DNA of 64,000 bases from Blastocatellia bacterium (GCA_963765495.1 CAVXWP010000008.1:160001-224000); one strand, 5' to 3'. Numbered from the stretch's first letter, positions 3 to 34,776 are shown. The notes: generated by a model not told the origin, from the sequence alone. Numbers and translations are program-made.

Positions 3-830
3 GGAGAGATAAGAGCGCGTGTGAACATCCTGCCGCTTGGAGCCGGGGCGCTCGCGGGCACAGGGTTCCCACTCGACCGCGAGATGGTAGCGCGTAGGTT
101 AGGCTTTGACGCCGTTTCCGCTAACAGTCTGGACGCCGTGAGCGACCGCGATTTCGTGATCGAACTGGTTGCTGCCGCCGCGCTCGTTATGGTTCACATC
201 AGCCGCATGGCCGAAGACCTGATAATCTATTCTTCCTCGGAGTTCGCCTTTATAGAGCTATCGGATGCTGTTTCAACCGGGTCTTCATTGATGCCTCAGA
301 AGAAGAACCCTGATTCGCTGGAACTGATTCGCGGCAAGGCGGGTCGCATATTCGGTCACAACGCGGCTTTGCTCGCTACGATGAAGGGGTTGCCGCTGGC
401 CTACAACAAGGACATGCAGGAAGACAAGGAAGCATTATTTGACACGCTCGATACTCTTCAAGGTTCGCTTGGCGTGATGACTACCGTGTTGCGAAATATC
501 AGAGTGAATGAAGAGCGAATGCGCGCAGCCGCTTTGAGCGGGTACTCGAACGCAACCGATCTTGCGGATTATCTTGTCAGATGCGGGCTCGAATTTCGAA
601 TCGCTCACGAAGTCGTCGGCCGGGTTGTAGGCTACGCTATTGGGGAAGGCAGGTCTTTGAGTGAATTGAGGTTGGAAGAGTACAGGCGGTTTTCTGAGTT
701 GTTTGATGACACTTTGTTTGAGGCGATAAGGCTGGAATCGTCGCTTGCGAGCAAATCGGTGACTGGCGGTACGTCGCCTGAGAGGGTGAGCGAGGCGCTC
801 GTCAGGGCAAGGAATGAGTTGAGCCGTTGA
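3..830 (+). CDS. argH: argininosuccinate lyase, 5'-truncated by window edge
   Basis: Frame open from nt 3; PLGAGALAG, NSLDAVSDRD, fumarase-family signature GSSLMPQKKNPD, GLPLAYNKDMQEDKE. Confidence 0.95.
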   Translation, partial: GEIRARVNILPLGAGALAGTGFPLDREMVARRLGFDAVSANSLDAVSDRDFVIELVAAAALVMVHISRMAEDLIIYSSSEFAFIELSDAVSTGSSLMPQKKNPDSLELIRGKAGRIFGHNAALLATMKGLPLAYNKDMQEDKEALFDTLDTLQGSLGVMTTVLRNIRVNEERMRAAALSGYSNATDLADYLVRCGLEFRIAHEVVGRVVGYAIGEGRSLSELRLEEYRRFSELFDDTLFEAIRLESSLASKSVTGGTSPERVSEALVRARNELSR

Positions 831-842
831 TCCTATTAAAGA

Positions 843-891
843 AATTTGAAATAGGCCGCGGATGCCGCGGATGCGGCGGATTTTCGCGGAT
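843..891. repeat. left arm of 49-bp inverted repeat flanking GxxExxY gene
   Basis: aatttgaaataggccgcggatgccgcggatgcggcggattttcgcggat is the reverse complement of 1350-1398 with one mismatch. Confidence 0.95.
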
Positions 892-915
892 CTGATCATG
901 TCTTCAAAGACATGG

Positions 916-1308
916 TCATGAGCAGCTCAAACTCTTCTTGGCATTTGTAAAAACTCTGCGCCGGAATTCAGGCATTGGCCCAAAGTTGAGCAATAGACCA
1001 ATCTCAATTTCTGTTGCTTTCAAATAATTCACCAACTGAGCTTCGTGGGCCTCGCAAATCACATCGGCTACTTTTAACTCCAAAATCACTATGTCTGCAA
1101 CCACTATATCAGCATAGTATTCGCCCACGAGTTGTCCTTGATAGTGAACCTTTATAGGCTGCTGCTGTCTGGCGGGTAGTCCTAATTTCCGCAATTCCAG
1201 TGTCAGAGCATTCTCATAGACCTTTTCGAGAAATCCATATCCCAAGGAGTTGTATGTTCTAAAGAAAGCCTTGATAATCCGGTCTGTCAGGTCTCTTTGC
1301 ACAAGCAT
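916..1308 (-). CDS. GxxExxY family protein (PD-(D/E)XK nuclease-like)
   Basis: 130 aa; GFLEKVY, YYADIVV..ILELK, QLVNYLKAT..GLLLNFG; aggagg RBS upstream. Confidence 0.93.
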   Translation of the reverse strand: MLVQRDLTDRIIKAFFRTYNSLGYGFLEKVYENALTLELRKLGLPARQQQPIKVHYQGQLVGEYYADIVVADIVILELKVADVICEAHEAQLVNYLKATEIEIGLLLNFGPMPEFRRRVFTNAKKSLSCS

Positions 1309-1349
1309 AAATCCCTCCTGAACGTCTACAAGTGACGCAGAGACGACTA

Positions 1350-1398
1350 ATCCGCGAAAATCCGCCGCATCCGCGTCATCCGCGGCCTATTTCAAATT
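1350..1398. repeat. right arm of 49-bp inverted repeat flanking GxxExxY gene
   Basis: atccgcgaaaatccgccgcatccgcgtcatccgcggcctatttcaaatt. Confidence 0.95.
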
Positions 1399-1474: not shown

Positions 1475-4400
1475 TTAGCGAGGCACCTCAATGGGTTTGC
1501 CCGCGAGCAGTGTCGGGACATTATTCTGTCTGAGCTTTTCATTCCATCCGGCGACCGTCTTGCTCAAAAAGTTGTTCACATCCGCAAGCGTTTTCTGTAA
1601 CTCGGTTTGAAGCGATGTGAAGTACTCTTTCTGAGCCGGCGTAGGCGCGGCGTTCGTGCTGTCTATTGTGAAAAACAGCGAACCAATTTTATCGACCAGA
1701 CGCGGCCCGCTCCCCAGATCGTCGTCGTCACTTTCGCCCGCCCGCGCCAGACGGTCAATCATGTCATTCACCTGCTTTTTGTAATCTGCAAACGCCTTCT
1801 TCAAATCCTCCGGCGCATCGGGCATCTGATCCTTGACGGTCTTTTCCCGCTGGCCGAGTTGCTCGCTTATACTGTCGAGTGCGTGCAAGGCGTCGTTTCC
1901 AGCTGACTGCATGTCGCGCAGCTTCATCGCGTAATCGAATGTTGATTCGAGCGCGGTTGTCTCTACCTGTACCGTGGGATCGAGGCGAACCTCCACGCGT
2001 TTTTCTACGGACTTATCCCCGACCATCAATTTTACGGTGTAGGTTCCCGGCAAGGCGCGGGCTCCTCGTGGCCCGCCGAAAAAGCTGTCCTGCTCCTCAC
2101 CGCTCGGCGGGCGGCGCTGGTGCGCGCCTTCATAGCTCAGGTTCCACGACGCGCGGTTCATTCCTTTCTCTTTCGAAACCTTCTCAATTTCGCGTATCAC
2201 CTTGCCTTTTTGGTCGAGAATCTGAATCTTCACTTTAGTCTTATCGTCGGGCTTCTCCTTCAAATAGTAAGTGATCAGCGCGCCGTAGGCCGGGTTCGGC
2301 CCCGTAAAGACCGCATCGGCTATGCCGTATCTCGTGAATCTTGTCGTATATCGCAGGGCCGGGCGTATGTCGAACATATATAAATCGCTGTTCAACACAT
2401 CGGCGCTCGCCTGCTGGATGGGGGTGGCATCATCGAGTATCCAGACGCTCCGCCCGTGCGTGGCCAGTATCAAATCGTTCTCTCGCGGATGAATGTATAT
2501 GTCGTGAACCGCTACCGTAGGCAGGTTCTTCAGATTGAGCGAAACCCACTCTTTGCCACCCGTATAGGAAGCAAAAAGGCCAAGCTCCGTACCCGCATAA
2601 ATCAGATTGGTGTTCTTCGGGTCTTCGCGCACTACCCAGACATATGCGCCTTCGGGCAGATTGCCCGATATGTCGGTCCAGTTCTTTCCGCTGTCGGTTG
2701 TCTTGTAGATGTAGGGCTTGAAGTCATCAAGCATGTGGCGGTCGAATGAAACGTATGCCGTGTCGGCGCTTGTGCGTGAAGGCTCTACGTGCGAGATCAA
2801 AGGCGCTGTGCCCAATCCCTTTACGTTGCGCACAAGATTGTTCCACGTCTGTCCCGCGTCGGTGGTCAGTTGCAGGTTGCCGTCATCGGTGCCCGCCCAG
2901 ATCATCCCCTTTTTCACGGGAGATTCGGCTATGCTGATTATCGTGTTGTTATATTCGGCGGCTGTGTTTTCAATTGAGACAGGTCCGCCCGCGTTCTTCT
3001 GCTTTTCGGGATCATTAGTAGTCAGGTCCCCGCTTATCTTCTGCCACGTCCTGCCGAAATCCGTAGACTTGAACAAGACATTTCCGCCCAGATAGACCGT
3101 GTTCTTATCGTGCGACGAGATGTGTATGGGCGCGTTCCAGTTAAAGCGGTATTTCGCATTGCTTGCCGGGCCTCCCCCGTCTTCGGCTGCCGGGGTGATG
3201 GATTGCTGCTCGCGGTTCTGCATATCGGTTAACACGATGCTGCCGCCCTGCGCTTCGGAAATGTAGAGGTCGGGATTGTCGGGATGGTTGTACATATAAA
3301 ACCCGTCGCCGAAACTCACCATCCGCCAGTCATCGTTTAATATCCCGGCAGGCTCGCGTGTGCGGCTGGGTCCGGTCCAGCTACCGTTGTCTTGCAGACC
3401 GCCCATTACATAATAAAAAGGCTGCCGGTTGTCGGCGTAGATCTGGTAGAACTGCCCAAGCGGCATGTTGTTCACATATTGCCAGGTCTCGCCCTTATTG
3501 TGAGAGACGGCTACGCCACCGTCCTGCCCCTGCCACATGTAATTCGGGTCCTTCGGATCAATCCAGAAGGCGTGATAATCAACGTGCGTGCGCGTAGACA
3601 TGGGCTTGAAAGTGTGCCCTCCGTCAATCGACAGATAGAGGGTTGAGGCTACGCCGTAGACCCGGTTCTCGTCTGTAGGGTCAACTCTCACCCGCGTGTA
3701 ATAAAACCCGCGCTGAACAATGCGCTGATCTTTTGACACCTGTTTGAATGTCTCGCCTTTGTCATCGGAACGGTAAAGCGATCCTTCCTTTGATTCGACT
3801 ATGGCATAAACGACATTCGGATTGCTGGGCGCGGCACGCACTCCGATGCGGCCAAGCAGTTTTGGCAACCCTTCGGTGATCTTCTTCCACGTGCGCCCGC
3901 CGTCGATGGATTTGTAGAGGCCGCCTTTTTCGCCGCCGCTTTCAAACGTCCAGGGCTTGCGCAAAAAATGCCACATCCCGGCGTAAAGTATATTCGGATT
4001 TTCCGGGTCCATAGCCAGATCGCTCACGCCGTGTTCCGGGTCGATATAGAGCGTCTTTTGCCAGGACTTGCCTCCGTCAGTGGTCATAAAGACCCCGCGC
4101 TCCGGGTTTGGGCCAAAGGCGTGGCCGAGCGCGCCGACATAGACCGTGTTCGGGTCGCGAGGGCTGACGATGATGGCAGAAATGCGTTCGGTCTCTTTCA
4201 ATCCCATGTGTTGCCAGGACTTGCCTCCGTCGTTTGATCTGTAGACGCCGTCGCCGAAAGAGACGCTATTTCGAACGTTCGTTTCACCCGTGCCTGCCCA
4301 GATCACATCCGAGTTGTTCGGGTCTACGGCGAGATCGCCTATCGAAATCGTCCCCTGTCGCTCAAAGATTGGGGTCCAACTCATGCCGCCGTTTGTGGTC

Positions 4401-4660
4401 TTCCATATCCCGCCCGAAGCCGTGCCTACGTAAACCAGATTGGGATTTCCGGCAACGCCTTCGACATCGGCGGTGCGACCGCCCATATTGGCCGGGCCTA
4501 TCGAGCGCCATTCGAGGTGTTCGAAGGCTTTGACATCGATGGCCCCGTTCTTTGAATCGTTTTCGGCGTGACGTTGTGCAAGGGAAGTGAGCGGCATGCT
4601 GTAGAGGAAAGCCGCTATTAGGACGACGTACCTTACCTGGCGCAATCGGTGAATACGCAT
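1475..4660 (-). CDS. secreted VPS10/sortilin-like BNR (Asp-box) repeat glycosyl hydrolase-like protein
   Basis: Signal peptide; WRSIGPANMGGR; many S/T-x-D-G-G-x-S/T-W Asp-boxes; C-terminal helical region. Confidence 0.85.
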   Translation of the reverse strand: MRIHRLRQVRYVVLIAAFLYSMPLTSLAQRHAENDSKNGAIDVKAFEHLEWRSIGPANMGGRTADVEGVAGNPNLVYVGTASGGIWKTTNGGMSWTPIFERQGTISIGDLAVDPNNSDVIWAGTGETNVRNSVSFGDGVYRSNDGGKSWQHMGLKETERISAIIVSPRDPNTVYVGALGHAFGPNPERGVFMTTDGGKSWQKTLYIDPEHGVSDLAMDPENPNILYAGMWHFLRKPWTFESGGEKGGLYKSIDGGRTWKKITEGLPKLLGRIGVRAAPSNPNVVYAIVESKEGSLYRSDDKGETFKQVSKDQRIVQRGFYYTRVRVDPTDENRVYGVASTLYLSIDGGHTFKPMSTRTHVDYHAFWIDPKDPNYMWQGQDGGVAVSHNKGETWQYVNNMPLGQFYQIYADNRQPFYYVMGGLQDNGSWTGPSRTREPAGILNDDWRMVSFGDGFYMYNHPDNPDLYISEAQGGSIVLTDMQNREQQSITPAAEDGGGPASNAKYRFNWNAPIHISSHDKNTVYLGGNVLFKSTDFGRTWQKISGDLTTNDPEKQKNAGGPVSIENTAAEYNNTIISIAESPVKKGMIWAGTDDGNLQLTTDAGQTWNNLVRNVKGLGTAPLISHVEPSRTSADTAYVSFDRHMLDDFKPYIYKTTDSGKNWTDISGNLPEGAYVWVVREDPKNTNLIYAGTELGLFASYTGGKEWVSLNLKNLPTVAVHDIYIHPRENDLILATHGRSVWILDDATPIQQASADVLNSDLYMFDIRPALRYTTRFTRYGIADAVFTGPNPAYGALITYYLKEKPDDKTKVKIQILDQKGKVIREIEKVSKEKGMNRASWNLSYEGAHQRRPPSGEEQDSFFGGPRGARALPGTYTVKLMVGDKSVEKRVEVRLDPTVQVETTALESTFDYAMKLRDMQSAGNDALHALDSISEQLGQREKTVKDQMPDAPEDLKKAFADYKKQVNDMIDRLARAGESDDDDLGSGPRLVDKIGSLFFTIDSTNAAPTPAQKEYFTSLQTELQKTLADVNNFLSKTVAGWNEKLRQNNVPTLLAGKPIEVPR

Positions 4661-34432: not shown

Positions 34433-34776
34433 AAATGATGCGTGATGCGTGACTTCAAGGAAACCTGCCTGTTAAAGATAATGTGCAAGGCCAGCAGGTC
34501 ATACCAAATCTTTTCAGATGACGACGTTTGACATTCGAATTCGTAAAATCATAATGATTTTCATCACGCAGGTTAGAATACTTGAAATAGGCCGGGACGG
34601 CCGCGGATGCGGCGGATTAGCGCGGATTAGACCTTATATGATCAGATCCGCGTAGATCCGCCGCATCCGCGGCCGTCCCGGCCTATTAAGGCAAGCCTCC
34701 CGTTCAAATTATGGGGCTATGTGATCTTTATCATCTCTATCTGGATAGATTTGGTATCACGCATCACGCATCATTT
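34433..34776. repeat. GATGCGT inverted pair (20-bp perfect arms) enclosing a second element
   Basis: aaatgatgcgtgatgcgtga at 34433-34452 / tcacgcatcacgcatcattt at 34757-34776. Confidence 0.88.
34582..34687 (+). mobile_element. gene-less (MITE/REPIN-like) relative of the GxxExxY element
   Basis: ~42-bp arms aataggccgggacggccgcggatgcggcggat...; shares outer ttgaaataggccg and asymmetric inner ends (ggattag / atgatcagatccgcg) with 843-1398. Confidence 0.75.

Follow-up and report, generated by a model that had tools for sequence, protein, structure and literature searches.

The window analysed here, a stretch of 64,000 nucleotides (nt) from Blastocatellia bacterium (GCA_963765495.1 CAVXWP010000008.1:160001-224000), carries at positions 843-1398 a 556-bp unit, hereafter the cassette, in which one gene for a GxxExxY protein is enclosed by two inverted arms. 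The cassette is the single gene-bearing member of a family of phased-word hairpin repeats. Its arms are 49 nt each, have one mismatch (98% complementary) and lie 458 nt apart. Each is composed of four RCGGAT words (GCGGAT here), spaced 9-9-10, and of a 15-nt outer end (AATTTGAAATAGGCC on the left and GGCCTATTTCAAATT on the right). The features of this part of the window are the following.

843-891, left arm: terminal motif AATTTGAAATAGGCC at 843-857, then GCGGAT at 858-863, 867-872, 876-881 and 886-891
892-915, minus strand, inner edge of the cassette: CTGATCAT, identical to the left end of the 18-nt loop in gene-less copies
916-1308, minus strand, GxxExxY / PDDEXK_3 gene: 130 amino acids (aa), the sole open reading frame (ORF) between the arms
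1309-1349, minus strand, 5′ leader of this gene: the outer ..CTA before the first ATCCGC is the right end of the gene-less loop
1350-1398, right arm: ATCCGC at 1350-1355, 1360-1365, 1369-1374 and 1378-1383, then GGCCTATTTCAAATT at 1384-1398
3-830, plus strand, argH: the C-terminal 275 aa within the window, with Lyase_1 and ASL_C2 matches; stop 12 nt ahead of the left arm
1429-1472, hairpin with 20-nt arms between the cassette and the stop of the BNR gene
1475-4660, minus strand, BNR/sortilin-repeat gene: 1061 aa, convergent with argH; stop 77 nt past the cassette

An initial annotation, made by a model from the sequence, had described a 130-aa GxxExxY gene inside 49-bp inverted repeats with one mismatch and GCGGAT units, and had placed the 556-bp unit between the convergent ends of argH and the BNR gene. 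Every point of this description holds, and the arrangement of the neighbours is confirmed by ORFs and domain matches. The hairpin at 1429-1472 is likely the shared terminator of argH and the BNR gene, and it has a counterpart in the relative G009, where the cassette is absent from this spacer. A GGAGGG stands 7 nt ahead of the ATG of the GxxExxY gene (1313-1318 on the plus strand), and a small stem-loop at 897-914 (CATGTCTT..AAGACATG) follows directly 3′ of its stop. When the whole cassette is folded as RNA, the arms pair, with a minimum free energy of -219 kcal/mol (z = -9.4). A 16-mer of the arm (at most 3 mismatches) is matched 9 times in the window versus 1.86 expected, a count reached by 0 of 100 shuffles. 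A permissive Rfam search of 700-1600 gave 0 matches; a promoter scan gave 0 sites and a terminator scan gave 1, the same level as in shuffles.

The 130-aa protein matches PF13366 PDDEXK_3 (2.5e-39, 134.7 bits, cut-off 22) and TIGR04256 GxxExxY (4.7e-38, 130.1 bits, cut-off 35). The motif residues are all present, namely, G25-x-x-E28-x-x-Y31, D67, E77-x-K79, and Q91-x-x-x-Y95; among 56 aligned sequences, G25, Y31, D67, and K79 are invariant and E28, E77, Q91, and Y95 are at least 90% conserved. This set of E, D, ExK, and QxxxY is that of the RecB/Cas4/lambda-exonuclease-type nucleases. A restriction-endonuclease-like fold is predicted by the AlphaFold 2 model (predicted local distance difference test score of 93.8), whose best Foldseek match is Cas4 SSO0001 (4ic1; E 1.7e-4, TM-score 0.57), followed by LHK/lambda exonucleases and Hjc. 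A sequence search of the PDB returned no meaningful relative, tblastn against phage records gave no match, and 0 families of the PADLOC defence-system models were matched. The closest relatives are only 62-67% identical. The function of PDDEXK_3/PF13366 is given as “Unknown” in the available text of a survey (PMC3424549), and GxxExxY is mentioned merely in passing in that of PMC8934634. No literature linking the GxxExxY/PF13366 family to repeats was found in a search with subscription journals and supplements outside its reach.

Hairpins without the gene in the same genome

The genome that contains the window (G000; 7.3 Mb, 17 contigs) has exactly one GxxExxY gene. Hairpins were collected by requiring at least two RCGGAT words per arm opposite at least two ATCCGY words, a rule which fixes word positions 2-6, so that these are not countable as conservation within this genome. 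The scan gave 94 hairpins, 93 of them gene-less and one, with 458 nt between its arms, being the cassette. The arms of the gene-less copies are separated by 18 nt in 68 cases, by 19 nt in 8, and by 9-47 nt in the other 17. Their loop starts with CTGAYC.. and ends with ..YTA, which correspond to the first 8 and the last 3 nt of the cassette interior. Since the ends of the gene-less loop equal the inner edges of the cassette, the gene sits exactly in the hairpin loop. Equally, the gene-less form is the cassette minus about 440 bp, and the uniform 18-nt loop suggests that a single deletion derivative later multiplied.

One gene-less hairpin lies in the window itself, within a nest of three tiers in which GATGCGT arms enclose a frame of about 257 bp that is similar to miniature inverted-repeat transposable elements (MITE-like) and that in turn encloses the RCGGAT hairpin.

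34437-34772, outermost tier: inverted arms of 7-nt period, GATGCGT twice, at 34437-34452 and 34757-34772
34501-34757, MITE-like frame: its own terminal inverted repeat of about 19 nt (ATACCAAATCT..), with the gene-less hairpin at the centre
34584-34688, gene-less hairpin: words at 34603-34670, 18-nt loop

Folded as single-stranded DNA, the hairpin at 34584-34688 reaches -58 kcal/mol (z = -15.4). The frame family was aligned from 10 chosen copies; no 9-bp duplication around the frame was seen by eye in two copies. In the flank families cl2, cl3, cl4, and cl7, for instance, which are defined by the sequences beside the hairpins, collapsed cores occur (AATAGGCC..GGCCTATT with little or nothing between), as if the palindrome had lost its interior symmetrically. 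A sequencing-run contig “joint” from 895 to 1348 (12 other letters between) was considered as an excision product and rejected, being simply another gene-less copy; contigs are blind to rare variants.

The RCGGAT hairpins are not the sole periodic repeats of the genome. With periodic-word arrays defined by a minimum of 3 exact 6-mers at a spacing of 7-11, the count is about 1023. Two abundant families among them, AATCACG with 133 arrays and GCAGTA with 45, yielded no copy that bears a gene. A periodic-word array lies near the stop (-20 to +120 nt) of 467 of the 3075 ORFs of at least 300 aa (15%).

Cassettes of relatives and the argH site

Among 40 relatives belonging to the same class, TIGR04256 was detected in 30, and copy numbers range from 0 to 8 per genome. 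From these relatives, 79 GxxExxY loci were fetched, 77 of which matched the window protein, and inverted arrays of a 6-7-nt word with a period of 8-10 occur in most of the 78 scored cassettes. By a strict rule based on 5-mer cores, a both-arm word was assigned in 43 of 72 relatives. When these words are placed on the protein tree, they change 16 times versus 29.9 in shuffled labels, and none of the 200 shuffles came down to 16. The clade that includes the window protein has 12 rows and 97% support; its labelled members carry CGGAT, apart from one with CAGCG.

Individual loci vary in layout. As the arm searches began beyond the stop codon, arms overlapped by the ORF escaped them (L071, L036, and L081). 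The GxxExxY ORFs of L071 (G002:C3) and L121 (G009:C39:4554-5054) extend into the downstream arm and end in the repetitive tails ..NPPNPPNP.. and ..HPPHP... The upstream arm is tandemly duplicated just 3′ of argH in L103 (G003) and L096 (G013), and the duplicate in L103 takes in the first codons of the nuclease gene. L211 (G072:C1:477503-477847) holds a GxxExxY gene of another clade whose words are in the opposite orientation, with ATCCG upstream and CGGAT downstream. Its downstream run has a period of 9 and at least 16 words, far more than the four found as a rule.

The same kind of arm is found well outside the class. The best 80 homologues in genomes representative of their species (79 evaluable; identity 52-67%) span, by record title, Bacteroidota, Ignavibacteria, Gemmataceae, Chloroflexota, Desulfobacterales, Cloacimonadota, and others. 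At least three xxxGAT units spaced 9-10 are present in both arms in 44/79 and in one arm in 22/79, compared with 0/79 for shuffled arms, and the 9-9-10 spacing is observed in 62 of 76 four-unit arms. GAT and the spacing are thus kept while the spacers drift, which simple stem pairing does not demand. The initial annotation had proposed that the flanks of other GxxExxY genes be inspected for inverted repeats; such arms do occur in relatives and in other phyla, and the objection that other copies lack them therefore fails.

Gene and gene-less arrays also tend to occur together. In a sample of 300 genomes of the phylum, a homologue (E ≤ 1e-25) is present in 37. The array RCGGAT-N3-RCGGAT-N4-RCGGAT is repeated at least 10 times in four of the genomes (G013 47, G009 35, G034 13, and G270 10), and all four possess a homologue; G000 has 225 such arrays. 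Conversely, all 3 genomes with a homologue at least 60% identical have at least 13 arrays, while the highest counts in published genomes without a homologue, one unpublished genome being set aside, are 6 and 4. The co-occurring genomes include kin and are not independent, representing about three to four lineages.

The argH loci of 30 genomes were compared. Cassettes of the same clade adjoin the argH 3′ end in G013, G021, and G003, a finding that bears on the mobility proposed by the initial annotation. In these three genomes the cassette has the same direction as argH, a gene other than the BNR gene of the window comes next, and the cassette begins within the last codons of argH, the arm supplying those codons and the stop (GAAATAGACCRCGGA). 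In G015 and G012, argH is followed directly by the same next gene, without a cassette. G002 and G020 have a cassette of the clade ahead of an acpH-like gene, some 0.7 kb upstream of argH. G009 keeps the argH-BNR arrangement, with a spacer of about 125 bp that is empty but for a terminator-like hairpin. The cassette of G009, which is the closest homologue (65-66% identity), is found elsewhere, between orthologues of the G000 genes C12:117038-119023 and 119105-120124; in G000 these two genes are 70 nt apart with no cassette between them, so that presence and absence are reciprocal in the two genomes. Either the cassette lineage changed place or two old paralogues were differentially lost. The trio of G013, G021, and G003 forms a clade at 98% and the window copy groups weakly elsewhere, so one common insertion is left undecided by the tree. 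The initial annotation had suggested a search of the argH region of relatives for an empty site, and the argH-BNR spacer of G009 and the argH ends of G015 and G012 answer to it. It had also reasoned that a gene fixed beside argH would contradict mobility. The cassette is not fixed there, but its adjacency to argH in three other genomes and its proximity in two more keep part of that concern alive.

Beyond the cassettes, periodic-word arrays occur at 13 of 30 argH 3′ ends (11 genera), in unrelated word families with periods of 7-10. The last codons and stop of argH lie within the repeat in 9/30 (L096, L097, L099, L100, L102, L103, L110, L111, and L115), and because the word families are unrelated, each of these genomes has a different ArgH C-terminal tail. 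That the argH 3′ end is a favoured landing or retention site is suggestive only, as 13/30 is set against a G000 baseline of 15% obtained with different counting criteria. In-situ divergence of one ancient argH hairpin was considered as the sole cause and is less likely than repeated insertion or replacement, given that the words of periods 7, 8, 9, and 10 are unrelated.

These data bear directly on the strict form of the initial reading, in which the cassette is a currently active autonomous transposon with the nuclease as its transposase and with frequent movement of its own. The terminal inverted repeats, the gene-less derivatives with common ends, the reciprocal empty sites of G000 and G009, and the 0-8 copies per genome among relatives would all suit such an element. 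Nevertheless, it is very improbable, since the cassette is single-copy in 7.3 Mb, cassettes of the clade stand at or near argH in 6 of 12 clade rows, and relatives no closer than 62-67% identity give no sign of recent movement. Furthermore, no target-site duplication is visible at 843/1398 or at 13 unique-flank gene-less copies inspected. On this last point the initial annotation had already seen no clear duplication, leaving the terminal TTGAAATAGGCC as either repeat or target; it is assigned here to the repeat family, as part of its own end. The “autonomous” mobility ascribed to the window copy is thus not upheld, in view of its single copy and the lack of a target duplication.

Possible maintenance by the nuclease and the alternatives

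The preferred explanation, to which a probability somewhat below even is given, is a partnership similar to that of repetitive extragenic palindromic (REP) sequences and REP-associated tyrosine transposases (RAYT), run by a Cas4/lambda-exonuclease-like nuclease and built like the ORF-bearing 23S rRNA intervening sequences (IVS). The nuclease would recognise the phased words both in the arms around its gene and in the gene-less copies, with several protomers probably engaged on each arm, and would cut at or near the arms or at the extruded hairpin. Host repair or replication would then copy or maintain the repeats, the nuclease standing where the REP/RAYT system has its HUH transposase. In transcripts, the arms may pair into a long stem, as in the ORF-bearing 23S rRNA IVS, so that insertions at gene ends would be tolerated. 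Movement of the gene-bearing copy would be rare, and gene 3′ ends, that of argH foremost, would be favoured as landing or retention sites.

A number of observations weigh against this explanation. The enzyme is a 130-aa nuclease with no evident strand-transfer chemistry, and the lack of target-site duplications, reported above, applies here as well. No both-arm word was found under the strict rule in 29/72 relatives, partly since ORFs read into the arm, and 13/79 cross-phylum homologues have no arms. Gene and arms are physically linked, and a correlation between word and protein is therefore expected from common descent alone. A looser pattern (N3-4) is frequent in G073 (79), G271 (69), G118 (59), and G111 (34), as period-10 arrays of another type, and a CGGAT-armed GxxExxY gene was not found in these four genomes; the GxxExxY genes of G073 and G271 carry other words, and the family is absent from G118 and G111. 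G072, with 179 arrays, has a cognate gene of another clade, the word orientation being flipped. In genus g21, G029 has 450 arrays plus genes of the window clade; G026 (35), G025 (14), and G027 (8) have RCGGAT arrays and no clade gene was found in them, G025 having no GxxExxY gene at all. Such orphan arrays may be decaying remnants left when the gene was lost, or they may not depend on the gene. Within G000, 8 flank families account for 128 of the 173 anchored hairpin flanks, and both flanks are so assigned in 52/94 hairpins; one of these families is a MITE-like element of about 270 bp with its own 19-nt terminal repeats. Because most gene-less hairpins sit in mosaic or MITE-like repeats, much of their copy number may come from other mobile frames. 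Finally, the innermost spacers of the gene-less copies are complementary in 8/93 (shuffled mean 14.1), whereas those of the cassette are symmetric (TTTC/TTTC), unlike most gene-less copies. It follows that the present gene-less population is not descended from the present arms and that stem pairing is not strictly maintained. The outer spacers of gene-less copies are complementary in 13/18 (shuffled mean 6.3).

Part of this evidence would equally suit a passenger gene. According to this alternative, the hairpins are generic palindromic repeats (terminator-like, REP-like, or MITE cores) that spread through other enzymes or through recombination, and a GxxExxY gene with an unrelated job merely occupies one loop or was taken up by it. 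The mosaic or MITE-like frames around most gene-less copies and the orphan arrays without a cognate gene fit it well, and a hairpin beside any given gene is not rare, since 15% of the long-ORF 3′ ends of G000 carry arrays. The alternative is nonetheless quite improbable. It does not lead one to expect the same word type and the 9-9-10 spacing across phyla (66/79 with at least one arm; shuffles 0/79), words that follow the protein tree, or a gene placed exactly in the hairpin loop, and an unrelated job in defence finds no match among the defence-system models.

The claim of the initial annotation that the nuclease fills the role of a RAYT stands in part. It is favoured by arms that form a genome-wide family with 93 gene-less members, by the empty sites, and by the fact that the RAYT of this genome has another REP; it is weakened by the location of most gene-less copies in mosaic or MITE-like repeats. 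G000 has two PF01797 genes, both elsewhere than the cassette and with other flanking repeats. One of them, the RAYT-like Y1 gene C17:144209-144484, is flanked by its own distinct REP (GGGGCAGGGCTTGTCCCTGCCC), so that the genome holds a conventional REP/RAYT pair alongside the phased-word hairpins. Mobilisation of the RCGGAT hairpins by this RAYT was rejected because the REP at its flanks is different.

A second kind of gene in G000 shares the cassette layout. All 4 genes of PF05635 (23S IVS protein, a four-helix bundle) lie between inverted arrays of 7-nt words:

C1:725049-725363, PF05635 gene, word GGGGCCA
C1:1070960-1071259, PF05635 gene, word TTTTGAG
C7:193635-193943, PF05635 gene, word GGGATGA
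C1:951928-952233, PF05635 gene, word GATTTTG

Gene-less hairpins occur elsewhere in the genome for three of the four words (TTTTGAG, GATTTTG, and GGGATGA); none appeared for GGGGCCA in the array pairing of G000. Both 23S rRNA genes (C7:680743-683875 and C7:378989-382121) exceed the Rfam model in length by about 208 nt, and both carry a gene-less TTTTGAG hairpin of about 95 nt (L203:2784-2878), its word being the arm word of the PF05635 gene C1:1070960-1071259. This hairpin is likely an IVS, and the whole class of hairpin cassettes is therefore tied to the classical intervening sequences.

The same data open the way to an explanation at the RNA level. The arms would pair in transcripts, host RNase III would cut, and the insert would be removed or insulated; the ORF would be selfish cargo, and the protein need not act on the arms. 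The whole cassette does fold with its arms paired, its layout equals that of the Coxiella IVS in the available text of PMC4990558, and the four PF05635 genes with inverted 7-nt arrays and the TTTTGAG hairpins of both 23S genes provide a precedent in the genome itself. Moreover, in G013, G021, and G003, co-transcription with argH is likely because the cassette starts inside argH and is co-directional with it. However, pairing alone allows covariation at all stem positions, and yet across phyla the spacers drift and xxxGAT and the 9-9-10 spacing persist. Most inner spacers of the gene-less copies lack complementarity, and the rRNA genes of G000 showed no RCGGAT hairpin. A role mainly at the RNA level is on this account unlikely.

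If the protein reads its flanking phased words, the large GxxExxY (PF13366) family would acquire a function, intergenic hairpin repeats of a very common class would be explained, and the unexplained origin of the ORF-bearing rRNA IVS would become testable. The pairs of word and protein would then also form a natural series of specificities for the recognition of short DNA words. A wider proposal, which is possible and at the same time somewhat doubtful, is that GxxExxY cassettes constitute a cross-phylum class of transposase-free, nuclease-driven, self-maintaining DNA. In such a class, a minimal Cas4-like nuclease would read a four-word 9-9-10 code, with which it co-evolves (RCGGAT, CAGAT, CAGGAT, CACAGAG, and others), and would seed and maintain hairpins at gene ends; the class would be sister to the S23p (four-helix-bundle) cassettes that make up 23S rRNA IVS. 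Two long-standing orphan families would then be explained together. In annotation, the hairpins matter because they rewrite gene ends, as with the argH codons and stops supplied by the repeat in 9 of 30 genomes.

Comparison with known systems

The GxxExxY protein shares with Cas4 (SSO0001, 4ic1), lambda/LHK exonucleases, and Hjc a common PD-(D/E)XK core, with E in helix 1, D, ExK, and QxxxY. The structural likeness (Foldseek E 1.7e-4 to 3e-3, TM 0.44-0.58) is accompanied by a sequence identity of just 11-21%. The protein is about half as large as Cas4 or lambda exonuclease, and no Fe-S cysteines were seen in it.

With pairs of MITE and parent element, the cassette has in common that the gene-less derivatives possess the ends and inner edges of the gene-bearing copy. 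It differs from them in that it encodes no DDE or other known transposase, its sole ORF being the PF13366 nuclease, and in that there is no target-site duplication; furthermore, many gene-less copies are themselves the cores of MITE-like frames.

The comparisons with published repeats that follow are based on the available text of the reports cited. The GGGAATC heptamer arrays of Xanthomonas (Rehm et al., PMC4692102) often form convergent pairs, with a bias to four units, and have been read as G-quadruplex formers. They resemble the arms described here in being arrays of a short word, in the four-unit bias, and in their convergent inverted pairing near gene ends. They differ in their period of 7 and in their G-rich words, and the text seen links no encoded protein to them.

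In Coxiella burnetii, the 23S IVS has an S23p ORF in the loop of a 28-bp stem, with tandem heptamers of variable number, and is excised by RNase III in vitro (PMC4990558). Common to this IVS and the cassette are a small ORF in the loop of a stem made by terminal inverted repeats, tandem short repeats at the stem, and an origin and mobility that are unexplained. The cassette is distinguished by a nuclease fold versus the four-helix bundle of S23p/PF05635, by a word period of 9-10 versus 7, and by its location between the protein genes argH and BNR rather than in rRNA.

A further parallel in organisation is offered by REP/REPIN-RAYT systems (PMC3116915, PMC3337134, and bioRxiv 10.1101/2022.05.22.493013). 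As in the cassette, a single-copy gene lies between inverted copies of a palindromic repeat that recurs gene-less tens to hundreds of times, and repeat abundance goes with the presence of the gene. The enzyme of the cassette is a PD-(D/E)XK nuclease (PF13366) and not a Y1 HUH protein (PF01797), and its repeat is an array of four phased words, compared with the one REP hairpin of RAYT. As to the mode of inheritance, the cassette is single-copy in G000 with 0-8 copies in relatives, and its site beside argH is common to three genomes and empty in G009, G015, and G012. Unlike those of RAYT, its closest homologues are scattered over many phyla.

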